NCBI RefSeq assembly: GCF_965641715.1 | Contig: NZ_OZ282453.1 | Reading direction: 5' to 3' (one strand) | Source: Escherichia coli | Lineage (GTDB): Bacteria; Pseudomonadota; Gammaproteobacteria; Enterobacterales; Enterobacteriaceae | Length of the DNA: 64,000 nt | Part shown: positions 8,078-39,812 of the stretch, in pieces | How positions within the stretch are numbered: the stretch's first letter is position 1 | Layout of the letters: every line of letters starts with the position of its first letter | The notes under the pieces: generated by a model | Database searches by the model: none | The model's input: only the letters and a program-made list of their open reading frames with translations | Told to the model about the DNA's origin: nothing | Program-made: the position numbers and the translations under genes

Positions 8078-8899
8078 ATGATGCACAGGTTGAATCTCAA
8101 TGGCTATGAACCCGACCGACACCATGAAGCCGCGGTCGCATTTTGTATTCACGCCGGAACGGATGAGTTAACCAGTCCTGTACATCAGCACCGCAAAGGA
8201 CAGCTGATACTGGCGCTACATGGTGCAATTACCTGTACGGTGGAAAATGCTTTGTGGATGGTGCCGCCACAATATGCGGTTTGGATACCGGGCGGGGTGG
8301 AACATAGCAATCAAGTGACAGCTAACGCTGAACTCTGTTTTCTGTTTATCGAACCCAGCGCAGTGACAATGCCGACAACATGTTGCACATTGAAAATATC
8401 GCCCTTATGCCGGGAATTGATTTTAACCCTGGCAAACAGGACGACGACTCAGCGTGCTGAGCCGATGACCCGCAGATTAATTCAGGTCCTGTTTGATGAA
8501 CTCCCTCAGCAGCCACAACAACAGCTGCACCTGCCCGTTTCTTCTCATCCTAAAATCCGCACGATGGTGGAGATGATGGCGAAAGGGCCCGTCGAGTGGG
8601 GGTCATTGGGGCAATGGGCTGGCTTTTTTGCGATGAGTGAACGCAATCTTGCCCGACTGATAGTAAAAGAGACGGGGTTGAGTTTTCGCCAGTGGCGTCA
8701 GCAGTTACAGCTGATTATGGCGCTTCAGGGATTAGTGAAAGGCGATACTGTACAGAAAGTTGCTCATACGCTGGGGTATGATTCAACAACGGCCTTTATT
8801 ACTATGTTTAAGAAAGGCCTGGGGCAAACGCCAGGCCGATATATTGCGGGATTAACTACTGTTTCCCCACAATCAGCGAAACCAGACCCGCGGCAATAA
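8078..8899 (+). CDS. yeaM: AraC-family transcriptional regulator (NimR)
   Basis: 273-aa ORF with a cupin-like N-domain and AraC HTH C-terminus. Confidence 0.85.
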
Positions 8900-9302
8900 G
8901 CGGGCCAACCGGTACGCCGCGAAACAGCGCCACGCCTAAAACAGTGCCCACCAGCAGCCCGGCGACCAGTTGCGGCTGGCTGCCCATTAACGTCACGCCG
9001 CGCCCACCCAGCCAGGAGACAATAACGCCTACTGCAATTGCCACCAGCGATTTCCAGTTCAGAAACGAGTGAATCAGGGTTGAGGGTGGTAGCGTCCCGC
9101 TGGCGATGGGGGCCATAACGCCAATCGTCAGAATGATTATCCCGATACTTAGCCCCTGTTTTTCAATCCACGGGAAAAAGGTGCTTAACGGTGTGACGCG
9201 GACAATGATCAACACCAGAATTGAAACGGCGACAGTGGTGTTATGACTGATAAAGCCCAGCGCAGCTAACCCGAGCAGGATCAGCAAAGTGACATCAAAC
9301 AT
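8856..9302 (-). CDS. yeaL: DUF441 inner-membrane protein
   Basis: 148-aa hydrophobic ORF; its 3' end overlaps the yeaM 3' end by about 44 bp. Confidence 0.85.
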
Positions 9303-11793: not shown

Positions 11794-13269
11794 TTAAATA
11801 TGATGAATAATCACTTTGTTGCCCCCCTCGCTTTTCGCTTCGCGTAAGGCTTTATCTGCTTCCGTCATGACAAGCGAGATATTACGCGTGTCACCCGTTG
11901 AAAAAACCGTGCCAATACTGATGGTCATTTGTTCAGGAACATCATATCTGTTACTAAAGCCGGTCAGGAGTTCGACATTTTTACGCATACGTTCCGCAAT
12001 GATTTTTGCCTGGGCACTATTGAGTTCGGTAAATAGCAAGCCAAACACCTCACCCTCCAGTCGCGCTAAAATATCATCGGGGCGGATGCTTTGCTGGATA
12101 ATATCGACAATTGAAACCAGCACTTTATCACCCACACGATGTCCCCATTGGGCATTGATGCGTTTGAACTGATTAATATCAACCAGCATGACACAGAAGT
12201 CCTTAACAACAGGTCGCGACAATAATGACTCTACGCTGTTGAAAAAGTAGCGCCGATTGTAAATATTGGTCAGCACATCATGAACTGCCAGTTTGCTGGA
12301 GAGTTGCAGCTCCTGAAAAATGTTATAAATCAGAAAAGACACAACAAACAGTTTACTGGAGACTTCAATCCCGCGACTGATATACCAGATGGTATAATTA
12401 TACTCATCCAGAGTCAGTAGAAGTAAGTTGCAGCATAGCGATGCCAGACATAATAATGCTATTAACGGCCATAGTTCGCTGGCTAATCGTGTACGCATGA
12501 TAATAAAGAACAGTAAAAATGCCCACAGACAAACCAATATTTTTGTATAGTTGATTCCCCAGGTCGCAGTATGGTTGTCCGGACAGTAATCGACGACATA
12601 CAAAGAATAGTCAGCGTTATAACTGCTCAGATTGTGTGCCAGAAGGGGAAAAACTAAAAAAGGAATCAGCGCCAGCAACAGAATGCCAGTTTTTTTCTTA
12701 TTGTTGTCAAGGATGTTGTCTTTTCCATAACAAAAGAGCGCCAGCGAGGTTAAACAAATAAAACTGAGTTGGCGGAAAATATAGAAAATAGAAACATCAT
12801 TCGACTTTGTCTGGATCAGTGTACTGCCGTTAATTGGTTTATGGATAATTACAATGGTTTCAACTAAATAGATAAGGCCACTTAAAAATGCAAGGCTTAA
12901 AATGAGTGTTGGTAAAATTTGTTTGTTAGTGAAATATTTCATTAACATGAAAAGAAAAATGACGGCGTTAAGGAAAAACAAAGCCACAACAACCATCAGG
13001 TAATTCATCTGTGGGATGAGTTTTACATTTGTGTTTTCGTTATATAAGGTAGTAATGCAAAATAAAATTAACGTCAGCAATAAACTGAAAATAAAAAAGC
13101 TTTGAGCTTTTAATTTTTGTGTACCCATAGAAACCATAAAAAGGAGAGCAATGTGAGTGCTGGATTTTATTGATGGCAGAGATATATGGTTTTGACCAGG
13201 ATCAATTTTCGTTAACGATAAAAAATATTTAAAGAATAACCCCATGGAAATACGTGTTGACTGAATCAT
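11794..13269 (-). CDS. cdgI: Membrane protein with degenerate GGDEF domain (c-di-GMP binding, CdgI)
   Basis: 491-aa ORF; multi-TM N-terminal half; C-terminal GGDEF fold whose motif reads EGEVF instead of GGDEF; AT-rich. Confidence 0.85.
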   Translation of the reverse strand: MIQSTRISMGLFFKYFLSLTKIDPGQNHISLPSIKSSTHIALLFMVSMGTQKLKAQSFFIFSLLLTLILFCITTLYNENTNVKLIPQMNYLMVVVALFFLNAVIFLFMLMKYFTNKQILPTLILSLAFLSGLIYLVETIVIIHKPINGSTLIQTKSNDVSIFYIFRQLSFICLTSLALFCYGKDNILDNNKKKTGILLLALIPFLVFPLLAHNLSSYNADYSLYVVDYCPDNHTATWGINYTKILVCLWAFLLFFIIMRTRLASELWPLIALLCLASLCCNLLLLTLDEYNYTIWYISRGIEVSSKLFVVSFLIYNIFQELQLSSKLAVHDVLTNIYNRRYFFNSVESLLSRPVVKDFCVMLVDINQFKRINAQWGHRVGDKVLVSIVDIIQQSIRPDDILARLEGEVFGLLFTELNSAQAKIIAERMRKNVELLTGFSNRYDVPEQMTISIGTVFSTGDTRNISLVMTEADKALREAKSEGGNKVIIHHI

Positions 13270-18017: not shown

Positions 18018-18872
18018 ATGCAACAAAAAATGATTCAATTTAGTGGCGATGTCTCACTGCCAGCCATAGGGCAGGGAACATGGTATATGGGCGAAGATGC
18101 CAGTAAGTGTAAAACAGAAGTTGCTGCACTACGCGCGGGCATTGAGCTCGGTTTAACCCTCATTGATACCGCCGAAATGTATGCCGATGGTGGTGCCGAA
18201 AAGGTGGTTGGGGAAGCATTAACCGGTCTGCGTGATAACGTCTTTCTCGTCTCTAAAGTCTATCCGTGGAATGCTGGCGGGCAAAAAGCGATAAATGCAT
18301 GCGAAGCCAGTTTACGCCGTCTCAATACTGATTATCTCGATCTCTACTTATTACACTGGTCTGGCAGTTTCGCTTTTGAAGAGACTGTCGCAGCGATGGA
18401 AAAATTGATCGCCCAGGGAAAAATCCGCCGCTGGGGCGTTTCGAACCTTGATTATGCTGATATGCAGGAACTCTGGCAGCTGCCGGGGGGAAATCAGTGT
18501 GCCACTAATCAGGTGCTTTACCATCTCGGTTCACGAGGGATTGAGTACGATCTACTCCCCTGGTGCCAGCAACAGCAGATGCCGGTGATGGCTTACAGTC
18601 CGTTAGCCCAGGCCGGGCGGTTGCGCAATGGACTGTTAAAAAACGCGGTAGTCAACGAAATTGCACATGCTCACAATATCAGCGCGGCACAAGTATTGTT
18701 GGCGTGGGTAATCAGCCATCAGGGTGTGATGGCGATTCCAAAAGCGGCCACGATTGCCCATGTCCAACAGAATGCGGCTGTGCTTGAGGTCGAACTTTCG
18801 TCAGCGGAATTAGCCATGCTGGATAAAGCGTATCCGGCACCAAAAGGAAAAACTGCGCTGGATATGGTGTGA
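18018..18872 (+). CDS. yeaE: Aldo-keto reductase (methylglyoxal reductase)
   Basis: 284-aa AKR-family ORF. Confidence 0.9.
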   Translation: MQQKMIQFSGDVSLPAIGQGTWYMGEDASKCKTEVAALRAGIELGLTLIDTAEMYADGGAEKVVGEALTGLRDNVFLVSKVYPWNAGGQKAINACEASLRRLNTDYLDLYLLHWSGSFAFEETVAAMEKLIAQGKIRRWGVSNLDYADMQELWQLPGGNQCATNQVLYHLGSRGIEYDLLPWCQQQQMPVMAYSPLAQAGRLRNGLLKNAVVNEIAHAHNISAAQVLLAWVISHQGVMAIPKAATIAHVQQNAAVLEVELSSAELAMLDKAYPAPKGKTALDMV

Positions 18873-20898: not shown

Positions 20899-21227
20899 CT
20901 ATTTGTTAGTGAATAAAAGGTTGCCTGTAAAATTACAAAAACCTTACGCAGCGTCAAGCGGAATCGTGTCAATCATTGCGACAAATCAATCCTGTGCCTA
21001 AGCATTACGCGACTGACTCGCCTCACTCTTCCTTTGGGCTTGAGACCACATGGGGTCGGCGCCCCGAATTTTAAAGGGCAATTACGATAAAAATGTGATT
21101 TTCATCACGATTTAGGTGCAGCCATTTCGTCGAGATCAAGTTTAGGACAAAATTTTGCCAGTTGGTGTTAATGTTTTGTTAGAATCAGTCACGTAATGTG
21201 AGCACGATTAAAGTGAGATGTGAGCAA

Positions 21228-21641
21228 ATGGCTAATAAACCTTCGGCAGAAGAACTGAAAAAAAATTTGTCCGAGATGCAGTTTTACGTGACGCAGAATC
21301 ATGGGACAGAGCCGCCATTTACGGGTCGTTTACTGCATAACAAGCGTGACGGCGTATATCACTGTTTGATCTGCGATGCCCCGCTGTTTCATTCCCAAAC
21401 CAAGTATGATTCCGGCTGTGGCTGGCCCAGTTTCTACGAACCGGTAAGTGAAGAATCCATTCGTTATATCAAAGACTTGTCACATGGAATGCAGCGCATA
21501 GAAATTCGTTGCGGTAACTGTGATGCCCATCTGGGGCATGTCTTCCCTGATGGGCCGCAGCCAACGGGCGAACGTTATTGTGTTAACTCTGCCTCTTTAC
21601 GCTTTACCGATGGCGAAAACGGCGAAGAAATCAACGGTTGA
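21228..21641 (+). CDS. msrB: Methionine-(R)-sulfoxide reductase
   Basis: ORF 21198-21641 trimmed to the ATG at 21228 (137 aa, [10 protein letters not shown]...); zinc-binding CxxC pairs. Confidence 0.9.
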
Positions 21642-21682
21642 AAAAACGATTCAGCAACTTATTCCACAGGAGCGGAAAAATT

Positions 21683-21955
21683 ATGAATCTTGATGACATT
21701 ATCAACAGCATGACGCCTGAGGTATACCAGCGTTTGTCGACCGCCGTTGAACTGGGGAAATGGCCTGATGGCGTTGCGTTGACCGAGGAACAAAAAGAGA
21801 ACTGCCTGCAACTGGTGATGCTATGGCAAGCCCGCCATAATACCGAAGCACAGCATATGACAATTGACACAAATGGTCAGATGGTCATGAAGAGCAAACA
21901 GCAGTTAAAAGAAGATTTTGGTATCTCAGCAAAGCCTATTGCTATGTTTAAGTAA
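21683..21955 (+). CDS. yeaC: DUF1315 protein
   Basis: ORF 21638-21955 trimmed to the ATG at 21683 (90 aa, MNLDDIINSM...). Confidence 0.85.
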   Translation: MNLDDIINSMTPEVYQRLSTAVELGKWPDGVALTEEQKENCLQLVMLWQARHNTEAQHMTIDTNGQMVMKSKQQLKEDFGISAKPIAMFK

Positions 21956-22214
21956 GTGGTTTATCCCCTTTTTGCCGCGGCTATGAAGGGGATAGCCAAC
22001 AATGACCCCACGACTCATCTCAATTATCTCGCCATGACCTGGCTAAGTCCCAGTCCGATCTCTTGCCGTCGCGTTCACGCCTGAATGACTTCTCCTGAAC
22101 TTAAGTCTCAGACCTATTTGGCCGGTAATCCCTCTCAAATTTGCTCATTTTGCGTTCCGCCTTCCATCAACCTGTAACAGAACCAGCCATTTTCTGCGTA
22201 ATTGTGATCTGAGT

Positions 22215-22246
22215 TGTAAAACGCAGATCATTATCTGTGTTTTACA
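22215..22246. promoter_or_regulatory. Candidate operator palindrome upstream of ydjL
   Basis: Perfect 8-bp inverted repeat tgtaaaac-N16-gttttaca about 80-110 bp upstream of the ydjL start. Confidence 0.3.
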
Positions 22247-22324
22247 GATTTAATGTTGACCTCAAAAATCATGTGGGTAAGTATGATGACCATCTAAGCA
22301 AAACAAAACACAGAGGATGACGCA

Positions 22325-23401
22325 ATGAAAGCACTGGCTCGGTTTGGCAAAGCCTTTGGCGGCTACAAGATGATCGATGTGCCACAACCCATTTGTGGCC
22401 CGGAAGATGTAGTGATTGAAATTAAAGCCGCGGCAATCTGCGGCGCAGACATGAAGCACTACAATGTCGATAGCGGTTCTGATGAGTTTAACTCTATCCG
22501 CGGCCATGAGTTCGCAGGTTGTATTGCGCAGGTTGGTGAAAAAGTCAAAGACTGGAAAGTGGGGCAACGCGTCGTGTCGGATAACAGCGGTCACGTCTGC
22601 GGTGTTTGTCCGGCCTGTGAACAAGGTGATTTTCTGTGTTGTACAGAAAAAGTAAACCTTGGTCTGGATAACAATACCTGGGGCGGTGGTTTTTCCAAAT
22701 ATTGTCTGGTTCCTGGTGAAATTCTCAAAATTCATCGTCATGCGTTGTGGGAAATCCCTGATGGTGTTGATTATGAGGACGCAGCCGTACTTGACCCTAT
22801 CTGTAATGCCTACAAATCCATCGCGCAGCAATCGAAATTCCTTCCTGGTCAGGATGTGGTCGTCATCGGCACTGGCCCACTCGGGCTGTTCTCCGTACAA
22901 ATGGCGCGGATTATGGGGGCGGTAAATATCGTTGTCGTTGGTCTGCAAGAAGATGTGGCGGTCCGCTTCCCGGTTGCAAAAGAACTGGGTGCGACGGCAG
23001 TAGTAAATGGTTCTACCGAAGATGTGGTGGCGCGCTGCCAGCAAATTTGTGGCAAAGACAATCTGGGACTGGTGATTGAATGCTCCGGTGCCAATATCGC
23101 ACTTAAACAAGCCATCGAAATGCTCCGCCCAAACGGGGAAGTGGTACGCGTTGGAATGGGCTTCAAACCTCTTGATTTCTCGATTAATGACATTACCGCC
23201 TGGAACAAAAGCATCATTGGGCATATGGCCTATGACTCAACCTCATGGCGTAACGCTATCAGGCTATTAGCCAGCGGCGCTATCAAAGTCAAACCGATGA
23301 TCACGCATCGTATCGGCCTGTCGCAATGGCGCGAAGGGTTTGATGCGATGGTCGATAAAACCGCAATCAAAGTGATCATGACTTACGACTTTGATGAATA
23401 A
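22325..23401 (+). CDS. ydjL: Zinc-dependent alcohol/polyol dehydrogenase (MDR family)
   Basis: 358-aa ORF with GHE and Cys zinc ligands. Confidence 0.9.
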   Translation: MKALARFGKAFGGYKMIDVPQPICGPEDVVIEIKAAAICGADMKHYNVDSGSDEFNSIRGHEFAGCIAQVGEKVKDWKVGQRVVSDNSGHVCGVCPACEQGDFLCCTEKVNLGLDNNTWGGGFSKYCLVPGEILKIHRHALWEIPDGVDYEDAAVLDPICNAYKSIAQQSKFLPGQDVVVIGTGPLGLFSVQMARIMGAVNIVVVGLQEDVAVRFPVAKELGATAVVNGSTEDVVARCQQICGKDNLGLVIECSGANIALKQAIEMLRPNGEVVRVGMGFKPLDFSINDITAWNKSIIGHMAYDSTSWRNAIRLLASGAIKVKPMITHRIGLSQWREGFDAMVDKTAIKVIMTYDFDE

Positions 23402-23427
23402 CAACTTTCCTGAAGGAACGTTATCGC

Positions 23428-24807
23428 ATGGAACAGATAACAAAACCGCATTGTGGTGCACGGCTGGATCGCTTACCGGATTGCCGCTGGCATTCGTCAA
23501 TGTTTGCCATCGTCGCGTTTGGCTTGCTTGTCTGCTGGAGTAATGCCGTTGGTGGCTTGATCCTCGCGCAGCTGAAAGCGTTGGGCTGGACAGATAATTC
23601 CACCACAGCCACATTCTCAGCAATCACGACCGCCGGAATGTTTCTCGGTGCGCTGGTGGGCGGCATCATTGGCGACAAAACCGGTCGCAGAAATGCGTTC
23701 ATCCTCTATGAGGCCATTCATATTGCCTCGATGGTTGTCGGTGCTTTCTCACCGAATATGGATTTCCTTATTGCCTGCCGTTTTGTGATGGGAGTTGGGC
23801 TGGGAGCTTTACTGGTTACGCTGTTTGCTGGTTTCACCGAATATATGCCCGGTAGAAATCGTGGAACGTGGTCAAGTCGGGTTTCCTTTATTGGCAACTG
23901 GTCATATCCGCTCTGTTCATTGATAGCGATGGGACTCACGCCGCTGATTAGTGCAGAGTGGAACTGGCGGGTACAACTGCTTATCCCTGCAATATTGTCG
24001 CTTATCGCTACGGCGCTGGCCTGGCGCTACTTTCCTGAATCCCCGCGCTGGCTGGAATCGCGCGGACGGTATCAGGAAGCCGAGAAAGTCATGCGGAGTA
24101 TAGAAGAAGGCGTCATACACCAGACGGGTAAACCTTTGCCGCCCGTGGTTATTGCTGATGACGGTAAAACGCCACAAGCGGTGCCGTATTCAGCCTTACT
24201 GACAGGAGTATTACTGAAACGCGTGATATTAGGCTCTTGTGTGCTGATTGCCATGAACGTTGTGCAGTACACACTAATTAACTGGTTGCCAACGATATTC
24301 ATGACCCAGGGGATTAATTTAAAAGACTCGATTGTTTTAAATACCATGAGTATGTTTGGCGCGCCATTTGGCATTTTTATTGCCATGCTGGTGATGGATA
24401 AAATTCCGCGTAAAACAATGGGTGTGGGGCTATTAATCCTGATTGCGGTGCTCGGATATATCTATTCACTGCAAACCAGTATGTTGCTCATAACGTTGAT
24501 TGGTTTCTTCCTGATTACTTTTGTCTATATGTACGTTTGCTATGCCTCGGCAGTGTATGTCCCTGAGATCTGGCCGACAGAGGCCAAACTCCGTGGCTCC
24601 GGTCTGGCGAATGCGGTAGGGCGAATCAGTGGTATTGCCGCACCTTATGCCGTTGCAGTGCTGCTCAGTAGTTATGGCGTTACGGGAGTCTTTATTCTTC
24701 TGGGGGCGGTTTCAATTATTGTCGCAATTGCTATCGCCACTATTGGAATCGAAACCAAAGGTGTCTCCGTTGAAAGTTTAAGTATTGATGCAGTAGCCAA
24801 TAAATAA
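23428..24807 (+). CDS. ydjK: MFS sugar transporter
   Basis: 459-aa 12-TM ORF. Confidence 0.9.
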   Translation: MEQITKPHCGARLDRLPDCRWHSSMFAIVAFGLLVCWSNAVGGLILAQLKALGWTDNSTTATFSAITTAGMFLGALVGGIIGDKTGRRNAFILYEAIHIASMVVGAFSPNMDFLIACRFVMGVGLGALLVTLFAGFTEYMPGRNRGTWSSRVSFIGNWSYPLCSLIAMGLTPLISAEWNWRVQLLIPAILSLIATALAWRYFPESPRWLESRGRYQEAEKVMRSIEEGVIHQTGKPLPPVVIADDGKTPQAVPYSALLTGVLLKRVILGSCVLIAMNVVQYTLINWLPTIFMTQGINLKDSIVLNTMSMFGAPFGIFIAMLVMDKIPRKTMGVGLLILIAVLGYIYSLQTSMLLITLIGFFLITFVYMYVCYASAVYVPEIWPTEAKLRGSGLANAVGRISGIAAPYAVAVLLSSYGVTGVFILLGAVSIIVAIAIATIGIETKGVSVESLSIDAVANK

Positions 24808-24822
24808 TACGGTGGATTCAAA

Positions 24823-25866
24823 ATGAAAAATTCAAAAGCAATATTGCAGGTGCCGGGCACAATGAAAATTATTTCAGCAGAAATACCAGTGCCTAAAGAA
24901 GATGAAGTTTTGATTAAAGTAGAATATGTCGGTATTTGTGGTTCAGATGTACATGGTTTTGAATCAGGTCCGTTTATTCCGCCTAAAGACCCAAATCAAG
25001 AAATTGGCCTGGGTCATGAATGCGCCGGGACGGTTGTGGCTGTGGGAAGCCGCGTGCGCAAATTTAAACCGGGGGATCGGGTAAATATCGAACCTGGCGT
25101 TCCTTGCGGTCACTGTCGTTACTGTCTGGAAGGCAAATATAACATCTGCCCGGACGTTGATTTTATGGCGACACAACCCAACTACCGCGGCGCATTAACG
25201 CACTATCTGTGTCATCCGGAGAGCTTTACTTACAAACTGCCCGACAATATGGACACGATGGAAGGGGCGCTGGTGGAGCCTGCCGCAGTCGGGATGCATG
25301 CCGCGATGCTGGCAGATGTTAAACCGGGTAAGAAGATAATTATTCTGGGAGCAGGTTGTATTGGTTTGATGACGTTGCAAGCGTGCAAATGCCTGGGAGC
25401 AACGGAAATTGCCGTCGTTGATGTGCTGGAAAAACGTCTGGCAATGGCGGAACAGCTTGGTGCGACAGTGGTTATTAACGGCGCAAAAGAAGACACTATT
25501 GCACGCTGTCAGCAATTTACCGAAGACATGGGCGCAGATATTGTTTTCGAAACAGCGGGTTCTGCGGTCACCGTTAAACAGGCACCTTATCTGGTAATGC
25601 GCGGCGGTAAAATTATGATTGTTGGTACTGTACCCGGCGATTCGGCAATCAATTTCCTCAAAATAAATCGCGAAGTTACTATCCAGACGGTATTCCGCTA
25701 CGCCAATCGTTATCCGGTCACGATTGAAGCTATTTCTTCAGGGCGATTCGATGTGAAATCGATGGTGACGCATATTTACGATTATCGGGATGTACAACAG
25801 GCATTTGAAGAGTCAGTTAACAATAAACGCGACATTATTAAAGGCGTTATTAAGATTAGCGATTAA
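24823..25866 (+). CDS. ydjJ: Zinc-dependent dehydrogenase (MDR family)
   Basis: 347-aa ORF with GICGSDVH and GHE motifs. Confidence 0.9.
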   Translation: MKNSKAILQVPGTMKIISAEIPVPKEDEVLIKVEYVGICGSDVHGFESGPFIPPKDPNQEIGLGHECAGTVVAVGSRVRKFKPGDRVNIEPGVPCGHCRYCLEGKYNICPDVDFMATQPNYRGALTHYLCHPESFTYKLPDNMDTMEGALVEPAAVGMHAAMLADVKPGKKIIILGAGCIGLMTLQACKCLGATEIAVVDVLEKRLAMAEQLGATVVINGAKEDTIARCQQFTEDMGADIVFETAGSAVTVKQAPYLVMRGGKIMIVGTVPGDSAINFLKINREVTIQTVFRYANRYPVTIEAISSGRFDVKSMVTHIYDYRDVQQAFEESVNNKRDIIKGVIKISD

Positions 25867-25886
25867 TTAATACGGGAGAACAGAAC

Positions 25887-26723
25887 ATGCTCGCAGATAT
25901 CAGATATTGGGAAAACGATGCCACAAATAAACGTTATGCTATTGCCCATTTTAATGTATGGAATGCAGAAATGTTGATGGGCGTTATCGACGCAGCCGAA
26001 GAAGCGAAATCACCGGTTATTATTTCTTTTGGCACAGGTTTTGTCGGCAACACCTCATTTGAAGATTTCTCTCACATGATGGTATCAATGGCACAAAAAG
26101 CAACGGTGCCGGTAATAACTCATTGGGATCATGGTCGGAGTATGGAGATTATTCATAACGCCTGGACTCATGGGATGAATTCATTAATGCGTGATGCTTC
26201 CGCATTTGATTTCGAAGAAAATATTCGTTTAACCAAAGAGGCTGTTGATTTTTTCCATCCGCTGGGTATTCCGGTAGAGGCGGAATTAGGGCATGTCGGT
26301 AATGAAACCGTTTATGAGGAAGCTCTGGCGGGCTATCACTATACCGATCCTGACCAGGCGGCTGAATTTGTTGAACGTACGGGCTGTGACTCATTGGCTG
26401 TCGCCATCGGCAACCAGCATGGGGTTTATACGTCAGAGCCACAATTGAACTTTGAGGTCGTCAAACGCGTACGCGATGCCGTGTCTGTTCCGCTGGTTTT
26501 GCATGGCGCATCGGGGATCAGTGATGCCGACATTAAAACTGCAATTTCGTTGGGTATCGCGAAAATCAACATCCATACGGAGCTCTGTCAGGCCGCAATG
26601 GTCGCAGTGAAAGAAAACCAGGATCAGCCTTTCCTGCATTTAGAACGTGAAGTACGTAAAGCTGTAAAAGAACGGGCATTGGAAAAAATTAAACTGTTCG
26701 GTTCTGATGGCAAAGCGGAATAA
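25887..26723 (+). CDS. ydjI: Class II (metal-dependent) aldolase
   Basis: 278-aa ORF, fructose-bisphosphate/tagatose-bisphosphate aldolase-like. Confidence 0.9.
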   Translation: MLADIRYWENDATNKRYAIAHFNVWNAEMLMGVIDAAEEAKSPVIISFGTGFVGNTSFEDFSHMMVSMAQKATVPVITHWDHGRSMEIIHNAWTHGMNSLMRDASAFDFEENIRLTKEAVDFFHPLGIPVEAELGHVGNETVYEEALAGYHYTDPDQAAEFVERTGCDSLAVAIGNQHGVYTSEPQLNFEVVKRVRDAVSVPLVLHGASGISDADIKTAISLGIAKINIHTELCQAAMVAVKENQDQPFLHLEREVRKAVKERALEKIKLFGSDGKAE

Positions 26724-26727
26724 TGAT

Positions 26728-27675
26728 ATGGATAATCTCGACGTTATTTGTATAGGTGCCGCTATTGTTGATATTCCATTGCAACCGGTCAGTAAAAATA
26801 TCTTTGATGTGGATTCTTATCCTCTTGAAAGAATCGCAATGACCACCGGGGGTGATGCAATAAATGAAGCAACAATTATTTCTCGTCTGGGCCATCGCAC
26901 AGCATTAATGAGTCGTGTTGGTAAAGATGCCGCAGGGCAGTTTATTCTCGACCATTGCCGCAAAGAGAATATTGATATTCAAAGCCTGAAACAGGACGTC
27001 AACATAGATACCTCTATTAACGTAGGACTGGTGACGGAGGATGGCGAGCGGACGTTTGTCACAAACCGTAACGGCAGTCTGTGGAAATTGAATATTGACG
27101 ATGTTGATTTTGCGCGGTTTTCTCAGGCGAAATTATTATCACTGGCCAGTATTTTCAACAGTCCACTATTAGATGGTAAAGCGCTAACAGAAATTTTTAC
27201 GCAAGCTAAAGCCCGGCAGATGATTATCTGTGCCGATATGATCAAACCGCGGTTGAATGAAACGCTGGATGATATTTGCGAAGCATTGAGTTATGTCGAT
27301 TATCTGTTTCCTAATTATGCCGAGGCAAAATTACTCACCGGGAAAGAGACACTGGATGAAATTGCTGACTGCTTTCTTGCGTGCGGCGTAAAAACGGTGG
27401 TGATTAAAACGGGTAAAGACGGCTGCTTTATCAAGCGTGGTGACATGACGATGAAGGTGCCGGCGGTCGCAGGAATAACCGCCATCGACACCATTGGCGC
27501 GGGCGATAACTTTGCTTCAGGTTTTATTGCGGCACTGTTAGAAGGCAAAAATCTGCGTGAATGCGCACGCTTTGCCAATGCAACGGCGGCTATCTCGGTT
27601 CTAAGCGTCGGTGCCACCACCGGCGTAAAAAACAGAAAGCTGGTCGAACAATTGCTGGAAGAATACGAAGGATAA
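26728..27675 (+). CDS. ydjH: PfkB-family sugar kinase
   Basis: ORF 26707-27675 trimmed to the ATG at 26728 (315 aa, MDNLDVICIG...); GAGDNF motif. Confidence 0.9.
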   Translation: MDNLDVICIGAAIVDIPLQPVSKNIFDVDSYPLERIAMTTGGDAINEATIISRLGHRTALMSRVGKDAAGQFILDHCRKENIDIQSLKQDVNIDTSINVGLVTEDGERTFVTNRNGSLWKLNIDDVDFARFSQAKLLSLASIFNSPLLDGKALTEIFTQAKARQMIICADMIKPRLNETLDDICEALSYVDYLFPNYAEAKLLTGKETLDEIADCFLACGVKTVVIKTGKDGCFIKRGDMTMKVPAVAGITAIDTIGAGDNFASGFIAALLEGKNLRECARFANATAAISVLSVGATTGVKNRKLVEQLLEEYEG

Positions 27676-27684
27676 TGAAGGCAA

Positions 27685-28665
27685 ATGAAAAAGATACCTT
27701 TAGGCACAACGGATATAACGCTTTCGCGAATGGGTTTGGGGACATGGGCCATTGGCGGCGGTCCTGCATGGAATGGCGATCTCGATCGGCAAATATGTAT
27801 TGATACGATTCTTGAAGCCCATCGTTGCGGCATTAATCTGATTGATACTGCGCCAGGATATAACTTTGGCAATAGTGAAGTTATCGTCGGTCAGGCGTTA
27901 AAAAAACTGCCCCGTGAACAGGTTGTAGTAGAAACCAAATGCGGCATTGTCTGGGAACGAAAAGGGAGTTTATTCAACAAAGTTGGCGATCGGCAGTTGT
28001 ATAAAAACCTTTCCCCGGAATCTATCCGCGAAGAGGTAGAAGCCAGCTTGCAACGTCTGGGTATTGATTACATCGATATCTACATGACGCACTGGCAGTC
28101 GGTGCCGCCATTTTATACGCCGATCGCTGAAACTGTCGCAGTGCTTAATGAGTTAAAGGCTGAAGGGAAAATTCGCGCTATAGGCGCTGCTAACGTCGAT
28201 GCTGACCATATCCGCGAGTATCTGCAATATGGTGAACTGGATATTATTCAGGCGAAATACAGTATCCTCGACCGGGCAATGGAAAACGAACTGCTGCCGC
28301 TATGTCGTGATAATGGCATTGTGGTTCAGGTTTATTCCCCGCTAGAGCAGGGATTGTTGACCGGCACCATCACTCGTGATTACGTTCCGGGCGGCGCTCG
28401 GGCAAATAAAGTCTGGTTCCAGCGTGAAAACATGCTGAAAGTGATTGATATGCTTGAACAGTGGCAGCCACTTTGTGCTCGTTATCAGTGCACAATTCCC
28501 ACTCTGGCACTGGCGTGGATATTAAAACAGAGTGATTTAATCTCCATTCTTAGTGGGGCTACTGCACCGGAACAGGTACGCGAAAATGTCGCGGCACTGA
28601 ATATCAACTTATCGGATGCAGACGCAACATTGATGAGGGAAATGGCAGAGGCCCTGGAGCGTTAA
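27685..28665 (+). CDS. ydjG: Aldo-keto reductase
   Basis: 326-aa AKR-family ORF. Confidence 0.9.
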   Translation: MKKIPLGTTDITLSRMGLGTWAIGGGPAWNGDLDRQICIDTILEAHRCGINLIDTAPGYNFGNSEVIVGQALKKLPREQVVVETKCGIVWERKGSLFNKVGDRQLYKNLSPESIREEVEASLQRLGIDYIDIYMTHWQSVPPFYTPIAETVAVLNELKAEGKIRAIGAANVDADHIREYLQYGELDIIQAKYSILDRAMENELLPLCRDNGIVVQVYSPLEQGLLTGTITRDYVPGGARANKVWFQRENMLKVIDMLEQWQPLCARYQCTIPTLALAWILKQSDLISILSGATAPEQVRENVAALNINLSDADATLMREMAEALER

Positions 28666-28801
28666 ATACTCAACACGATTCACCTCTGTTTCTGTGAAAA
28701 CTGTGATGAAAATCTGTGATTCAAACAGGTTATTTTGAAAGTAAACATCGGTTATGCGATAATCGTGCTAATGTGATGTAAAAAGATACAGGGGTGTAAT
28801 C

Positions 28802-29560
28802 GTGGCGGCAAAAGACAGGATTCAGGCAATTAAGCAAATGGTTGCCAACGATAAAAAGGTGACAGTCTCAAATTTGAGTGGGATTTTTCAGGTAACCGAA
28901 GAAACCATTCGCCGCGATCTTGAGAAGCTGGAAGATGAAGGCTTTTTGACCAGAACTTATGGTGGTGCTGTTTTAAATACAGCGATGTTGACGGAGAATA
29001 TTCATTTTTATAAGCGCGCTTCATCGTTTTATGAAGAGAAGCAGCTTATTGCACGCAAGGCACTACCCTTTATCGACAATAAAACCACCATGGCAGCCGA
29101 TTCCAGTAGTACCGTAATGGAATTGCTCAAATTGTTACAGGACCGTAGTGACCTGACGTTGCTAACCAACTCGGCGGAAGCGATTCATGTTCTGGCTCAG
29201 TCAGAAATTAAAGTCGTTTCAACGGGTGGGGAACTAAACAAAAATACACTTTCACTGCAAGGAAGAATTACTAAAGAGATCATCAGCCGCTATCATGTCG
29301 ATATCATGGTAATGAGTTGTAAAGGTCTTGATATTAACAGCGGCGCGCTGGACTCTAATGAAGCGGAAGCTGAAATCAAAAAGACAATGATCCGTCAGGC
29401 GACAGAAGTTGCGTTATTGGTTGATCACTCTAAGTTTGATCGCAAAGCTTTTGTCCAGTTAGCTGACTTTAGTCATATTAATTACATAATAACTGATAAA
29501 TCACCGGGTGCAGAGTGGATAGCATTTTGCAAAGACAATAATATCCAGCTGGTGTGGTAA
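28802..29560 (+). CDS. ydjF: DeoR-family transcriptional regulator
   Basis: 252-aa ORF with a GTG start; N-terminal HTH and DeoR C-domain. Confidence 0.9.
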   Translation: MAAKDRIQAIKQMVANDKKVTVSNLSGIFQVTEETIRRDLEKLEDEGFLTRTYGGAVLNTAMLTENIHFYKRASSFYEEKQLIARKALPFIDNKTTMAADSSSTVMELLKLLQDRSDLTLLTNSAEAIHVLAQSEIKVVSTGGELNKNTLSLQGRITKEIISRYHVDIMVMSCKGLDINSGALDSNEAEAEIKKTMIRQATEVALLVDHSKFDRKAFVQLADFSHINYIITDKSPGAEWIAFCKDNNIQLVW

Positions 29561-29677
29561 TTTAAGCACACGTTGTCAATATTATTTGTTCCTGCGCCTG
29601 GAAATAAAATGATGATAAAGATGCGGCAAGTGAATTTGCCGCAATTGCTACCTTTTTTAGCAAATCCGAGGCACCCA

Positions 29678-31036
29678 ATGGAACAATATGATCAAATTGG
29701 CGCAAGACTGGACCGCTTGCCTTTGGCCCGGTTTCATTATCGTATATTTGGTATTATAAGCTTTAGTCTGTTATTAACAGGGTTTTTGAGTTACTCCGGT
29801 AATGTCGTCTTAGCAAAGCTGGTAAGCAATGGATGGTCAAATAATTTCCTCAATGCCGCCTTTACCTCGGCATTAATGTTTGGTTATTTCATCGGCTCTC
29901 TTACCGGTGGGTTCATCGGTGATTACTTTGGGCGGCGCAGGGCGTTTCGCATAAATCTTCTCATCGTCGGTATTGCTGCAACAGGGGCCGCTTTTGTCCC
30001 TGATATGTACTGGCTCATCTTCTTTCGCTTCCTGATGGGAACAGGAATGGGGGCGCTGATTATGGTTGGCTATGCCTCATTTACGGAGTTTATCCCCGCG
30101 ACGGTGCGTGGAAAATGGTCCGCGCGGCTCTCATTTGTTGGTAACTGGTCGCCCATGCTGTCTGCGGCGATAGGTGTGGTGGTTATCGCTTTTTTTAGTT
30201 GGCGGATAATGTTTCTGTTGGGTGGTATTGGCATACTGTTAGCCTGGTTTCTCTCAGGTAAATACTTTATCGAGTCGCCACGATGGCTGGCAGGGAAAGG
30301 GCAAATCGCAGGTGCAGAATGCCAACTTCGTGAAGTAGAGCAGCAAATTGAAAGAGAGAAGAGTATTCGTTTACCCCCGCTTACTTCGTATCAGAGCAAC
30401 AGCAAGGTTAACGTAATCAAGGGTACTTTCTGGCTCCTGTTTAAAGGTGAAATGTTACGACGTACATTAGTCGCGATTACTGTTTTAATTGCAATGAACA
30501 TTTCGCTTTATACCATCACCGTATGGATACCGACCATATTTGTTAACTCCGGCATTGATGTCGATAAATCAATATTAATGACCGCTGTTATTATGATTGG
30601 CGCTCCGGTAGGAATATTTATTGCGGCATTAATTATTGATCATTTTCCTCGTCGGTTATTTGGCTCCACCTTACTTATTATTATTGCCGTGTTAGGCTAT
30701 ATCTATTCAATTCAGACTACAGAGTGGGCGATTTTAATCTATGGCCTGGTGATGATCTTCTTTTTATACATGTATGTTTGCTTCGCGTCGGCGGTTTATA
30801 TCCCGGAGCTTTGGCCAACGCATTTACGCCTGCGCGGTTCGGGTTTCGTTAATGCCGTCGGACGGATCGTCGCAGTCTTCACGCCCTATGGCGTTGCGGC
30901 ATTATTAACACATTATGGGTCGATCACGGTGTTTATGGTGCTTGGTGTTATGTTAGTGCTCTGTGCGCTGGTTCTCTCTATTTTTGGCATCGAAACGCGG
31001 AAGGTGTCGTTGGAAGAGATTTCTGAGGTGAATTAA
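29678..31036 (+). CDS. ydjE: MFS transporter
   Basis: ORF 29573-31036 trimmed to the ATG at 29678 (452 aa, MEQYDQIGARL...); paralogous to ydjK. Confidence 0.9.
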   Translation: MEQYDQIGARLDRLPLARFHYRIFGIISFSLLLTGFLSYSGNVVLAKLVSNGWSNNFLNAAFTSALMFGYFIGSLTGGFIGDYFGRRRAFRINLLIVGIAATGAAFVPDMYWLIFFRFLMGTGMGALIMVGYASFTEFIPATVRGKWSARLSFVGNWSPMLSAAIGVVVIAFFSWRIMFLLGGIGILLAWFLSGKYFIESPRWLAGKGQIAGAECQLREVEQQIEREKSIRLPPLTSYQSNSKVNVIKGTFWLLFKGEMLRRTLVAITVLIAMNISLYTITVWIPTIFVNSGIDVDKSILMTAVIMIGAPVGIFIAALIIDHFPRRLFGSTLLIIIAVLGYIYSIQTTEWAILIYGLVMIFFLYMYVCFASAVYIPELWPTHLRLRGSGFVNAVGRIVAVFTPYGVAALLTHYGSITVFMVLGVMLVLCALVLSIFGIETRKVSLEEISEVN

Positions 31037-31088
31037 ATCTTTCGTTGATGGCATCAATTGCCAGATGTGCCACTGACGTGTTTTATTT

Positions 31089-31119
31089 GGCCTACAATGC
31101 CAGTACAGAATTGTAGGCC
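31089..31119. repeat. Palindromic REP-like element between ydjE and pncA
   Basis: ggcctacaat...attgtaggcc perfect 10-bp arms. Confidence 0.35.
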
Positions 31120-31128
31120 AGCGTAAAA

Positions 31129-31770
31129 TTACCCCTGCGTCTCTTCCCAGTCTGCCAGCGTATATAGCGTTGCCCCAGCTGCTGACATCTCCATAAACGC
31201 GTGCGCACTGTCCTGTGGCTGAATATTCACGCCACGACAACCATCGGTAATCACGTTCACCTTATAACCTAACTGTAACGCATCCAGCACGGTAAACTTC
31301 ACGCAATAGTCAGTAGCCAGGCCCATAACGATCAATTCATCGATTTCATGATCGCGTAACCAGTCATCGAGCGTGGTTTTCTGCCGACGGCCGTTATCAA
31401 AAAAGGCACTGTAACTGTCAACTAAAGGATTTTCGCCTTTATGGAACACCGCTGCGATCGCTTTTTGGTTCAGTAACGGATGTAATTGTGCGCCTTCACT
31501 GTTCTGCACACAGTGATCTGGCCAGAAGGTTTGTGGCAAACCGTCGAGTTGACCTGGCGTATAAGGCTCGACACTGTGCTGACTGGCAAAACTGCCGTGA
31601 TTCGCCGGGTGCCAGTCCTGACTGGCGATAACCGCTTCACCGCGCGACTGGCACCAGTCAATCAGGCGGTTAGCGACATCCACCGTACTGTCACCTTCCG
31701 GCACGGCGAGCGCGCCACCAGCACAGAAATCATTTTGTAAATCGACCAGTAACAGGGCGCGAGGGGGCAT
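31129..31770 (-). CDS. pncA: Nicotinamidase/pyrazinamidase
   Basis: ORF trimmed to the ATG at 31770 (213 aa, MPPRALLLVDLQNDF...). Confidence 0.9.
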   Translation of the reverse strand: MPPRALLLVDLQNDFCAGGALAVPEGDSTVDVANRLIDWCQSRGEAVIASQDWHPANHGSFASQHSVEPYTPGQLDGLPQTFWPDHCVQNSEGAQLHPLLNQKAIAAVFHKGENPLVDSYSAFFDNGRRQKTTLDDWLRDHEIDELIVMGLATDYCVKFTVLDALQLGYKVNVITDGCRGVNIQPQDSAHAFMEMSAAGATLYTLADWEETQG

Positions 31771-31780
31771 TGCAGTCTCC

Positions 31781-32797
31781 TTAATCATCCGGCGTCAGTT
31801 CGCCGCGCAGGTTTTGGCTCATGGCCTTGCGAATGGTTTCAGTATCCAGTTCCTGGCTAAGCAGGTAATGCAGTTTGGTTAGCGTGGCTTCTACAGTCAT
31901 ATCTGCACCGCCAATAACGCCAGCATGGGCGAGGGCGTTACCGGTGGCATAACCACCCATATTCACTTTACCGGACATACATTGTGTCAGGTTGACCACC
32001 ACAATACCGCGATCGCTGGCTTCTTGTAATTCCTGCAGGAAGGCTTTGTTTTGTGGCGCATTACCCACGCCATAGGAGCGCAGAATCAATGCTTTCACCG
32101 GTTGGCGCAGAAAATTGCGCACGACGTCAGCAGAAATCCCTGGATAAATCGTCACTACGCCAATTGGTTGTGGGGTGATTGGATGTACGATCAATTCCCC
32201 TTCACCGTGCGGGGCGGGTGGCGTATTCAAACGACGAATATGGATACCTGCTTCCAGTAACGGAGGAAGGTTTGGAGAGGCAAACGCATCAAAACCATCG
32301 GCATGGGCTTTGGTAGTGCGGTTGCCGCGATACAGTCGGTTATTAAAAAAGAGTGTTACTTCGTTGATCGGATAATTCGCCGCAACGTACAACGCATTCA
32401 GCAGATTAATTTGTCCGTCAGAGCGTAACTCAGCCAGCGGGATTTGTGACCCTGTCACAATGACCGGTTTACCGAGATTTTCGAGCATGAACGACAGCGC
32501 AGAGGCGGTATATGCCATCGTATCGGTGCCGTGCAGAATGACAAAACCATCATAGTCGTCATAGTGCGCTTTAATATCTTCAGCAATATGCTGCCAGTCT
32601 TCCGGCGTCATATCTGAAGAATCCATCAGCGGCGTATATTCATGAATGGTGAAATCTGGCATCTCCGGGCGATGGAATTCCGGCATCAGCGCCAGTTGGC
32701 GTTGTAGATGACCTGACACCGGTATATAACCCTGCTCGGAACGCTGCATCCCGATGGTCCCGCCCGTGTAGGCGACGTAAATTGATTTCTTTTGCAT
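31781..32797 (-). CDS. ansA: Cytoplasmic L-asparaginase I
   Basis: ORF 31781-32938 trimmed to the internal Met (338 aa, MQKKSIYVAYTGGTIGM...); start may be off by 1 bp. Confidence 0.9.
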   Translation of the reverse strand: MQKKSIYVAYTGGTIGMQRSEQGYIPVSGHLQRQLALMPEFHRPEMPDFTIHEYTPLMDSSDMTPEDWQHIAEDIKAHYDDYDGFVILHGTDTMAYTASALSFMLENLGKPVIVTGSQIPLAELRSDGQINLLNALYVAANYPINEVTLFFNNRLYRGNRTTKAHADGFDAFASPNLPPLLEAGIHIRRLNTPPAPHGEGELIVHPITPQPIGVVTIYPGISADVVRNFLRQPVKALILRSYGVGNAPQNKAFLQELQEASDRGIVVVNLTQCMSGKVNMGGYATGNALAHAGVIGGADMTVEATLTKLHYLLSQELDTETIRKAMSQNLRGELTPDD

Positions 32798-32950
32798 GAT
32801 ATTGATATGAATGATATCGAAAGAGCAAAAGTATATACGTGAGGCAGGGGGAGCGCACCTGATACTATGCGGATAAGGAAATATGGGGCGAGACAGCGGG
32901 AAGAGGATTAAAAATATGGCCGACGATCTGTCGGCCACTCAGTACAAGAC

Positions 32951-38771: not shown

Positions 38772-39812
38772 ATGAAAAAAGTTTTATTACAAAACCATCC
38801 TGGGAGCGAGAAGTATTCTTTTAATGGCTGGGAAATATTTAATAGTAATTTTGAACGGATGATTAAAGAAAATAAGGCCATGCTGCTTTGTAAGTGGGGA
38901 GGTTATTTAACATGTGTTGTCGCTGTAATGTTTGTATTCGCAGCGATAACATCCAACGGTTTGAATGAAAGAGGCCTGATTACTGCGGGATGCTCTTTTC
39001 TTTATCTATTAATTATGATGGGGCTTATTGTTCGGGCCGGTTTTAAAGCAAAAAAAGAACAACTGCATTATTATCAGGCTAAAGGTATTGAGCCGCTCAG
39101 TATCGAGAAGTTACAGGCGCTACAATTGATCGCACCTTATCGATTCTATCATAAGCAATGGTCTGAAACGCTGGAGTTCTGGCCGCGAAAGCCTGAACCT
39201 GGCAAAGATACCTTCCAATATCATGTGCTTCCTTTTGACTCGATCAATATCATTAGTAAAAGACGCGAGTCTTTAGAGGATCAATGGGGTATCGAAGATA
39301 GCGAAAGTTATTGTGCCTTAATGGAGCATTTTCTTTCTGGCGACCATGGAGCCAATACCTTTAAAGCAAACATGGAGGAAGCCCCAGAGCAGGTTATCGC
39401 CTTGTTGAATAAATTTGCTGTTTTTCCCTCAGATTATATCTCTGATTGCGCTAATAATCGCTCCGGTAAATCCTCGGCGAAGCTAATATGGGCGGCGGAA
39501 TTATCATGGATGATCTCGATATCAAGCACAGCTTTTCAAAACGGGACAATTGAAGAAGAACTGGCCTGGCATTATATAATGCTTGCTTCTCGAAAGGCGC
39601 ACGAGTTGTTCGAAAGCGAAGAAGATGATCAAAAAAATAGTCTAATGGGATTTCTTTACTGGCATATCTGCTGCTATCGCAGAAAGTTAACGGATGCTGA
39701 ACTTGAAGCGTGTTATCGTTACGACAAGCAGTTTTGGGAGCACTACAGTAAGAAATGCCGTTGGCCCATAAGAAATGTTCCCTGGGGAGCATCATCCGTT
39801 AAATACTCATAA
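38772..39812 (+). CDS. ynjI: DUF1266 inner-membrane protein
   Basis: ORF 38661-39812 trimmed to the ATG at 38772 (346 aa, MKKVLLQNHPG...); AT-rich. Confidence 0.8.
   Translation: MKKVLLQNHPGSEKYSFNGWEIFNSNFERMIKENKAMLLCKWGGYLTCVVAVMFVFAAITSNGLNERGLITAGCSFLYLLIMMGLIVRAGFKAKKEQLHYYQAKGIEPLSIEKLQALQLIAPYRFYHKQWSETLEFWPRKPEPGKDTFQYHVLPFDSINIISKRRESLEDQWGIEDSESYCALMEHFLSGDHGANTFKANMEEAPEQVIALLNKFAVFPSDYISDCANNRSGKSSAKLIWAAELSWMISISSTAFQNGTIEEELAWHYIMLASRKAHELFESEEDDQKNSLMGFLYWHICCYRRKLTDAELEACYRYDKQFWEHYSKKCRWPIRNVPWGASSVKYS

Follow-up and report, generated by a model that had tools for sequence, protein, structure and literature searches.

What does Escherichia coli use the ydj gene cluster for? 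The question is raised by a 64,000-nt stretch of E. coli DNA (contig NZ_OZ282453.1; hereafter the window), which carries between positions 22325 and 31036 eight intact genes on the + strand, ydjL-K-J-I-H-G-F-E, as read from the listing of its open reading frames (ORFs). An initial annotation, made from the sequence alone, had described this segment as a compact cluster for the catabolism of a sugar acid or polyol, with in vivo substrate and inducer undefined. The gene families support this core reading, and our analysis suggests that the locus, comprising ydjLKJIHG followed by ydjF with its own promoter and then ydjE, probably serves the ketose-1-phosphate catabolism of an acidic polyol or ketose, probably of seven to nine carbon atoms (C7-C9).

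The Window Carries the K-12 ydj Cluster

The eight genes are flanked by yeaC on one side and pncA on the other, the same layout as in the K-12 record (RefSeq annotation), and RefSeq gives the genes these names both in the best-matching genome and in K-12. In a megablast search against 5,426 complete E. coli genomes, the cluster DNA was 99.6% identical to that of strain A30 and 98.9% identical to that of the K-12-derived strains RR1 and DH5alpha, and none of the eight proteins is truncated, each having 0-3 substitutions relative to K-12 (99-100% protein identity). The cluster is the already known K-12 ydj cluster (b1776-b1769) in another strain: genes, order and flanks are common to both, these substitutions are the only difference, and no structural difference was found. 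Both the eight co-oriented genes and the outer coordinates of the initial annotation are exact according to the ORF listing, and the families that it gave to the eight genes agree with our Pfam and NCBIfam searches. The genes are the following, with lengths in amino acids (aa):

22325 to 23401, + strand: ydjL, Zn-dependent medium-chain dehydrogenase, 358 aa, 357/358 identical to K-12
23428 to 24807, + strand: ydjK, major facilitator superfamily (MFS) transporter, 459 aa
24823 to 25866, + strand: ydjJ, sorbitol-dehydrogenase-like Zn dehydrogenase, 347 aa, identical to K-12
25887 to 26723, + strand: ydjI, class II aldolase dependent on dihydroxyacetone phosphate (DHAP), 278 aa
26728 to 27675, + strand: ydjH, PfkB-family sugar kinase, 315 aa
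27685 to 28665, + strand: ydjG, aldo-keto reductase, 326 aa
28802 to 29560, + strand: ydjF, DeoR-family regulator, 252 aa, GTG start
29678 to 31036, + strand: ydjE, second MFS transporter, 452 aa

The correct starts of ydjH (26728) and ydjE (29678) lie inside the mechanical ORFs, which begin at 26707 and at a TTG at 29573, respectively.

Gene Families and the Proposed Pathway

The kinase and the aldolase are central to the proposal. YdjI belongs to the class II ketose-bisphosphate aldolase family (PF01116, 298.2 bits vs a cut-off of 25.5; TIGR00167, 324.4 vs 215.6) and is not an equivalog of GatY (239.6 vs 383), KbaY (186.2 vs 542) or FBA (TIGR01859, 246.6 vs 343); its structure, PDB 6OFU, is entitled 'YdjI aldolase'. 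YdjH is a PfkB carbohydrate kinase (PF00294, 249 bits vs 25.8; structures PDB 3H49/3IN1), and its best named NCBIfam kinase is IolC (TIGR04382), of which, at 143.3 bits vs a cut-off of 300, it is not a member. The RefSeq product names in K-12 are 'L-glycero-L-galacto-octuluronate kinase' for ydjH and 'L-glycero-L-galacto-octuluronate-1-phosphate aldolase' for ydjI. Both enzymes were reportedly characterised in vitro by Huddleston, Raushel and colleagues in two papers in Biochemistry in 2019; the initial annotation had omitted this work, and its statement that the physiological substrate is undefined holds. In a later report, YdjH and YdjI are described as favouring long-chain monosaccharides that end in a carboxylate, the substrate used best in vitro as being without natural abundance, and the enzymatic functions of the operon as only partly determined (PMC9602453). 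Another source describes YdjI as interconverting octuluronate-1-phosphate and DHAP plus L-arabinuronate (PMC11194214).

For the other products the families are broader. YdjL and YdjJ both contain the ADH_N and ADH_zinc_N Pfam domains, and their substrate is not assignable by family because all the specific NCBIfam equivalogs (Tdh, IolM, IdnD and GatD) score below cut-off. The closest solved homologue of YdjL is the L-threonine 3-dehydrogenase 2DQ4; YdjJ itself has a solved structure (5VM2), and its next PDB relatives are a ketose reductase and sorbitol, L-arabinitol and xylitol dehydrogenases. YdjK and YdjE are paralogues, 44% identical to each other, both with the general Pfam MFS_1 and Sugar_tr domains; they score below the sugar-porter model TIGR00879 (61.6 and 73.8, respectively, vs 237.8) and also below their best subfamily match, the aromatic-acid:H+ symporter model TIGR00895 (147.4 and 154.8 vs 418.55). 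YdjE is placed in the sugar-porter family by TCDB and is still listed as an orphan transporter (PMC10971958). YdjF has the DeoR/GlpR architecture (HTH_DeoR PF08220, 62.6 bits; DeoRC PF00455, 167.8 bits), falls below the cut-off of every named DeoR equivalog (GlpR, AgaR, SrlR, FucR, DeoR and UlaR) and is counted among the uncharacterised transcription factors (PMC4797297). YdjG, whose closest solved homologues are YhdN and IolS of B. subtilis, exceeds the cut-off of the equivalog built on it (NF049922, NADH-dependent methylglyoxal reductase YdjG; 628.6 vs 550); with this exception the ydj products fail the equivalog thresholds of every named NCBIfam family. Two genes of the window that lie within 10 kb of each other, yeaE (18018-18872) and ydjG (27685-28665), are annotated as methylglyoxal reductases of the aldo-keto reductase family, and yeaE-like ORFs surfaced as YdjG homologues in most Enterobacterales loci.

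In the pathway that we propose, the unphosphorylated substrate would be imported by the MFS symporter YdjK and/or YdjE, and YdjJ and/or YdjL, judging from their family, would oxidise the hydroxyl next to the terminal CH2OH to give a 2-ketose with a distal carboxylate, a 'uluronate'. The ketose would be phosphorylated by YdjH, at C1 as the name of the aldolase substrate implies, and the 1-phosphate would be split by YdjI into DHAP and an aldehydo-acid, which is L-arabinuronate for the best substrate; others have demonstrated these two steps in vitro. YdjG may then reduce the reactive aldehyde product, methylglyoxal reduction being the only activity demonstrated for it. Like other DeoR proteins, YdjF most likely represses PydjL and its own promoter; it would bind a TCTKTG-N3-CAMAGA box abutting each -35, and its release would be triggered by a phosphorylated intermediate, the product of YdjH being the most likely one. 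CRP would add catabolite control, as expression data of others indicate: ydjLKJIHG is listed among the Crp-activated operons (PMC8085971).

Several known systems resemble this route. The chemical logic of YdjH and YdjI is that of the distal steps of myo-inositol catabolism in B. subtilis (IolC, IolJ and IolS), where IolC phosphorylates the CH2OH next to the keto group of an acid sugar and the class II aldolase IolJ then frees DHAP and an aldehydo-acid. IolC is also the best NCBIfam match of YdjH, IolS is near YdjG, and IolM-type models are among the top matches of YdjL and YdjJ; however, YdjH reaches 143 bits vs the IolC cut-off of 300, and the substrates reported for ydj are C7-C9 and not C6. 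Judged by family, the eight ydj products include no dehydratase and no ring-opening hydrolase to take the roles of IolE, IolD and IolB, so that cyclitols could not be opened. With the tagatose-bisphosphate pathways of galactitol and GalNAc (GatD, GatY/KbaY, GatR/AgaR) the cluster has in common a Zn dehydrogenase, a class II aldolase and a DeoR repressor under CRP. GatY, KbaY and AgaY are clear paralogues of YdjI, which nevertheless stays below the GatY and KbaY cut-offs, and those pathways import through the phosphotransferase system and cleave a 1,6-bisphosphate, whereas ydj has MFS transporters, one kinase and a ketose-1-phosphate with a distal carboxylate.

In the L-fucose and L-rhamnose pathways a ketose is converted to a ketose-1-phosphate and then to DHAP and an aldehyde, on which an oxidoreductase acts, and a DeoR-family regulator senses a phosphorylated intermediate. 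This sequence of steps is like the route proposed for ydj; the components are unlike it, being FGGY kinases, aldolases of the class II aldolase/adducin fold, the activator FucR and 6-deoxyhexose substrates. Finally, the reaction that we infer for YdjJ and YdjL is carried out by IdnD (L-idonate) and LgoD/YjjN (L-galactonate), Zn medium-chain dehydrogenases whose oxidation of an aldonate at the penultimate carbon gives a uluronate-type keto-acid. The IdnD model matches YdjJ at E=1e-51 (175.8 bits, below the equivalog cut-off of 469), and the IdnD and LgoD pathways go on by reduction or dehydration, where ydj would go on by phosphorylation and then aldol cleavage.

A Candidate YdjF Operator at Both Promoters

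The regulatory elements of the cluster are listed below; a strand is given for the two promoters.

22234 to 22248: TCTGTGTTTTACAGA, candidate YdjF operator O1, 7 nt upstream of the -35 of PydjL
22256 to 22284, + strand: putative PydjL core promoter, -35 TTGACC (22256-22261) and -10-like AAGTAT (22279-22284)
22215 to 22246: palindrome of the initial annotation, TGTAAAACGCAGAT-catt-ATCTGTGTTTTACA, arms 22215-22228 and 22233-22246
22200 to 22221: AATTGTGATCTGAGTTGTAAAA, CRP-like site read from the sequence, with a perfect and conserved left half (TTGTGATCT) and a poor right half
22633 to 22647: TCTGTGTTGTACAGA, possible auxiliary operator in ydjL, a box match with at most 1 mismatch
28713 to 28763, + strand: PydjF, with box TCTGTGATTCAAACA (28713-28727), 7 nt, -35 TTGAAA (28735-28740), 17 nt and TG-GATAAT (28758-28763)
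29622 to 29643: hairpin between ydjF and ydjE, TGCGGCAA-N6-TTGCCGCA, its stem retained with some paired changes in other Enterobacterales
31088 to 31120: hairpin between the convergent ydjE and pncA, TGGCCTACAAT-N11-ATTGTAGGCCA, also present in the empty-site allele

By phylogenetic footprinting in 17 Enterobacterales, a tightly conserved block of about 125 bp was found upstream of ydjL, with no conservation beyond about -125 from the ydjL ATG. The block holds, in this order, TTGTGATCT, the core of the palindrome, ATCTGTGTTTTA(C/A)AGAT and, after 7 nt, an invariant TTGAC(C). The PydjL core promoter was read by eye and was not called by the consensus scan, and its TTGAC is invariant in all 17; PydjF is the best promoter-like match of the region (10/12 positions) and lies in the ydjG-ydjF spacer, a block conserved in the same set. 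At both promoters a 15-bp box, TCTKTG-N3-CAMAGA, stands 7 nt upstream of the -35. When we scanned for this box with at most 1 mismatch (background 0.021 per 260 nt over all fetched loci), 19 of 22 Enterobacterales had it upstream of ydjL, and the 64-kb window gave three matches only (22234, 22633 and 28713), all within the cluster. The box also occurs upstream of ydjL in Blautia, Atopobiaceae, Erysipelotrichaceae and Parafannyhessea, and the ydjL leaders of Lachnospiraceae carry TCTTTGAAACACAGA at the same distance from TTGACA. The box, described here for the first time, is likely the YdjF operator, for which it is the best candidate because YdjF is the sole regulator travelling with the module.

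The palindrome upstream of ydjL pointed out in the initial annotation is real (arms of 14 nt each, 93% complementary), but the conserved element is the 15-bp box, which overlaps its right arm only. The exact 14+14 palindrome was rejected as a conserved operator, since both 8-mer ends of the arms recur only in E. whittamii and the alignment points to another conserved core; outside E. whittamii the core CAGAT-N5-ATCTG is retained. At the intragenic match (22633), the Leu, Cys and Thr codons are nearly unchanged in 22 Enterobacterales and the flanking synonymous sites vary; this site, which is absent in Firmicutes, may be an auxiliary operator. The hairpin between ydjF and ydjE may be a terminator or an attenuator separating ydjE; the terminator scan called it on the minus strand only, where no gene ends. 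No Rfam family was matched across positions 21000-32000 of the window. In the Lachnospiraceae (loci L026-L045) a GC-rich palindrome, GTTTCCGGCCGGAAAC, is also strongly conserved. It lies about 60-80 nt upstream of ydjL and downstream of the putative promoter, has no counterpart in E. coli and may form a hairpin in the leader or be a further site for a protein.

As for the conditions of expression, memory circuits driven by PydjL were off in culture and were switched on during transit through the mouse gut (PMC6561318), so the natural substrate is evidently present there. Rho-dependent termination was reported in the ydjL leader/ORF (bioRxiv 2020.07.18.207399). Full-text searches of the open-access literature for a growth substrate, an inducer or the YdjF regulon returned only incidental mentions of ydj; as the initial annotation had held, this literature names no substrate and no inducer, and no carbon source that needs the cluster for growth and induces it via YdjF was found in it.

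An Old Cluster Shared Across Phyla

A scan for YdjI in one genome per GTDB species returned 80 loci. The same msrB-yeaC, ydj, pncA-ansA arrangement was found in Escherichia whittamii, Citrobacter, Klebsiella, Raoultella, Yokenella and Intestinirhabdus. Compared to Citrobacter and Klebsiella, synonymous divergence (dS) is saturated to a like degree in the ydj genes and in the flanking msrB, pncA and ansA, and the ratio of nonsynonymous to synonymous divergence (dN/dS) of the ydj genes is 0.02-0.05, similar to that of msrB and ansA. The matching dS and the shared site suggest that the cluster is old at this place and was inherited together with its flanks, and the low dN/dS points to strong purifying selection. 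A recent E. coli genomic island was rejected on this synteny across six genera and on a dS in step with the flanks; no integrase, insertion sequence (IS) or tRNA is annotated at the cluster borders, where direct repeats at the junction were not exhaustively searched.

The gene set also recurs in Lachnospiraceae, Clostridium, Blautia, Oscillospiraceae, Erysipelotrichaceae, Anaerococcus, Veillonella, Megamonas, Atopobiaceae, Synergistaceae and the bee-gut Gilliamella. Gut and anaerobic members of the Firmicutes, Actinobacteria and Synergistetes are thus among the carriers of L-J-I-H-G-F. Identity of the Lachnospiraceae proteins to those of E. coli is very high for cross-phylum comparisons (YdjI 85-87%, YdjL 82-85%, YdjJ 63-80%, YdjH about 68%, YdjG 58-67%, YdjF 51-54% and YdjK 52-56%). 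A tree of concatenated L+J+I+H+G was built by neighbour joining (46 taxa, rooted at the midpoint, without bootstrap). In it the Enterobacterales fall into a single clade within the diversity of the Firmicutes, and the sister group of this clade, made up of Veillonella, Megamonas, C. puniceum, Herbinix and Lachnotalea, has the E. coli gene order. Budvicia falls among Citrobacter and Klebsiella in the tree, yet its cluster is at a different site, which would indicate a further transfer within the Enterobacterales. An ancient, cross-phylum horizontal origin, with vertical inheritance since then at the yeaC|pncA site in Escherichia, Citrobacter and Klebsiella, is well supported by these comparisons.

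A horizontal origin had been suggested in the initial annotation from AT-rich genes and a rare-codon bias relative to neighbours such as gapA. The recurrence across phyla, at up to 87% protein identity, supports the origin, but not a recent one, since dS matches that of the flanks, and rare codons lend it no support. The cluster has 46.4% GC vs 50.3% in the remainder of the window and a mean third-position GC (GC3) of 0.466 vs 0.540 elsewhere in the window (Mann-Whitney p=6e-4), so several genes are indeed AT-rich; ydjL and ydjK are compositionally ordinary. No significant excess of rare codons was found in the cluster (eight rare codons, 4.5% vs 4.0%, p=0.18), and gapA, with 0% rare codons, is an extreme and unrepresentative comparator. 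Two other genes of the window are far more AT-rich than the ydj genes, one at 11794-13269 and one at 38772-39812; of the two, one has 38.6% GC and stands where related genomes annotate cdgI, and the other, with 41.1% GC, is ynjI.

Across the loci, L-J-I-H-G is an invariant core and F is present in about 70 of the 80 species loci. Transport is exchangeable, being provided by a YdjK-type MFS protein or by ATP-binding cassette (ABC) transporters of the Liv-like (HAAT) or CUT1 type (CUT1 in four clusters); in some Firmicutes ydjK is replaced by ABC systems. ydjE lies beside the cluster in all the Enterobacterales loci that reach that far and also in Veillonella, Clostridium puniceum and Gilliamella, and we count it as part of the system because ydjE-like genes flank other clusters and ydjE itself is 44% identical to ydjK. 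Two accessory genes recur: 31 loci of Firmicute type have an AlsE-like ketose-phosphate 3-epimerase gene between ydjL and ydjK (242.6 bits vs the NF007266 cut-off of 271), and 29 loci have a gene for a DctA/GltP-family carboxylate/amino-acid symporter appended.

Other neighbours were seen in subsets of the loci. In Citrobacter and Klebsiella (L010, L012-L016, L019-L021, L073) a gene of about 427 aa, read by eye as chitinase-like, lies between yeaC and ydjL, and the same gap holds, on the opposite strand, a small HNH gene resembling YajD; no remnants of these two genes were found in the 369-bp yeaC-ydjL spacer of E. coli. In some Firmicute loci (L048, L049, L051, L053, L054, L064, L066, L070, L080, L082, L084) the ydj core adjoins genes read by eye as 5-oxoprolinase-type subunits (PxpA/B/C), a D-2-hydroxyacid dehydrogenase and a LysR regulator, together with an aminotransferase and an RraA/HMG-aldolase-like protein confirmed by NCBIfam. 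As pathway members, the 5-oxoprolinase-like, aminotransferase, RraA-like and LysR genes were set aside, since they occur in only 4-8 loci and probably form an adjacent operon.

Probable Loss of the Cluster in a Fifth of E. coli Genomes

Of the 5,426 complete E. coli genomes, 4,242 (78%) have ydjI; a figure of about 80% is said to be given in the Raushel abstract. An empty site, with pncA 160 bp after yeaC, was found in 1,087-1,089 genomes (20%), and some further copies are IS-disrupted or partly deleted. The polymorphic segment is:

21956 to 31070: polymorphic ydj segment, 9.1 kb in the window vs about 91 unrelated bp in the empty allele

The two alleles part from the yeaC stop codon on, which is TGA in one and TAA in the other, and rejoin about 50 bp before pncA at a common hairpin, GGCCTACA...TGTAGGCC. 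As many as 978 empty-site junctions are at least 99% identical to one another, and this uniformity argues for essentially one event, spread by descent and recombination. Comparison of the filler of about 91 bp (positions 8846-8936 of locus L003 and 8843-8933 of L004) with the window and the 80 fetched loci gave no match; the filler could be the scar of a deletion, or an old empty allele brought in by recombination. Most simply, the empty allele of E. coli is a secondary loss. In a survey of meat-plant isolates the loss fell mostly in phylogroup B1, the prevalence of ydj being 30% there and 97-100% in A, B2, D and E, and its presence was associated with lactic-acid resistance (PMC9602453). Another gene-content difference lies beyond pncA: A30 has a SIMPL-domain gene (L001:16931-17641) between ansA and sppA, which is missing from the window (gap near 32800-32950) and from K-12.

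Alternative Explanations

Several points weigh against the pathway and regulation as proposed. FucR is a DeoR-family activator, which bears on the repressor part, and the box has its centre some 50 nt before the inferred start, a position from which an activator could act just as well. The substrate that YdjH and YdjI use best in vitro is reportedly synthetic and used with modest efficiency, so that the true substrate class may differ. The AlsE-like epimerase of the 31 Firmicute-type clusters fits a C1-phosphate/carboxylate scheme poorly, the parts assigned to YdjL, YdjJ and YdjG are drawn from their families, and outside the Enterobacterales the box was found upstream of ydjL in just 24 of 55 loci at the threshold used. 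The open-access literature gave no report of YdjF-DNA binding, of a YdjF effector or of a ydj mutant phenotype, and YdjE has been tied, tentatively, to the export of 3-phenyllactate and acetophenone and not of sugars (PMC10971958).

Some of these observations could also be explained by a cluster for neutral polyols or ketoses (heptitols/heptuloses, hexitols, allulose or tagatose), the carboxylate preference in vitro being an artefact of the substrate library. The polyol dehydrogenases nearest to YdjJ (sorbitol, xylitol, arabinitol), the Sugar_tr matches of YdjK and YdjE with the TCDB placing of YdjE, the CUT1 sugar-type transporter of four clusters and the homologue, just under cut-off, of the AlsE D-allulose-6-phosphate 3-epimerase in 31 clusters all speak for it. 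However, the carboxylate preference is reported for YdjH and YdjI alike (PMC9602453), the symporter linked in 29 loci is of the DctA/GltP family, both MFS proteins score better on the aromatic-acid/H+ symporter model than on the sugar-porter model, and with a single kinase a 1,6-bisphosphate route would be one step short. We consider neutral substrates unlikely on balance, and the acidic C7-C9 substrate remains the reading that we prefer.

The remaining explanations question that ydj is a working catabolic pathway. That the operon is mainly a system for aldehyde or methylglyoxal detoxification and stress is a motive raised by the authors of the gut biosensor (PMC6561318), and it has in its favour the methylglyoxal-reductase equivalog score of YdjG and the lactic-acid association of the meat-plant isolates (PMC9602453). 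We regard it as highly improbable: with a transporter, a kinase and a DHAP aldolase beside two polyol-type dehydrogenases, and with a DeoR regulator under CRP, the architecture is a catabolic one, the entire set and not ydjG alone is co-conserved across phyla, and E. coli can draw on further methylglyoxal reductases, one of them encoded by yeaE at a distance of a few kb. A cryptic remnant without current function, in the course of being lost from E. coli, would account for the roughly 20% of complete genomes without the cluster and for the disrupted or partly deleted copies, as well as for the 30% prevalence in B1 meat-plant isolates (PMC9602453), the silence of the promoter in laboratory media before gavage (PMC6561318) and the Rho-dependent termination early in ydjL (bioRxiv 2020.07.18.207399). 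Such decay is very unlikely in view of eight intact ORFs nearly identical to those of K-12, a dN/dS of 0.02-0.05, conserved promoter/operator blocks and a PydjL that fires in the gut (PMC6561318). Catabolism of an acidic ketose or polyol thus stays the probable function.

Implications

The ydj cluster is one of the few complete-looking catabolic operons of K-12 without a physiological substrate, despite crystal structures for three of its proteins and detailed enzymology on two. Our analysis leaves its classification as a known orphan cluster unchanged; the residual interest lies in the substrate question, which is now more directly testable. The handles gained are a predicted operator at both promoters and a set of natural knock-outs (about 20% of E. 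coli), and the accessory genes found elsewhere, namely the AlsE-like epimerase, the DctA-type symporter and the alternative ABC importers, constrain the chemistry. The high identity of the enzymes (62-87% between E. coli and Lachnospiraceae), the strong purifying selection and the promoter active in the mouse gut suggest a real, shared gut nutrient behind ydj. Going further, it is conceivable, though we hold this only tentatively, that ydj is an anciently mobile pathway of the gut/anaerobe niche for a natural C7-C9 acidic sugar or aldonate which has gone unrecognised as a metabolite of the diet, the host or the microbiota. If this were true, the cross-phylum pair of YdjF and its box could act as a ready-made biosensor to find the compound.

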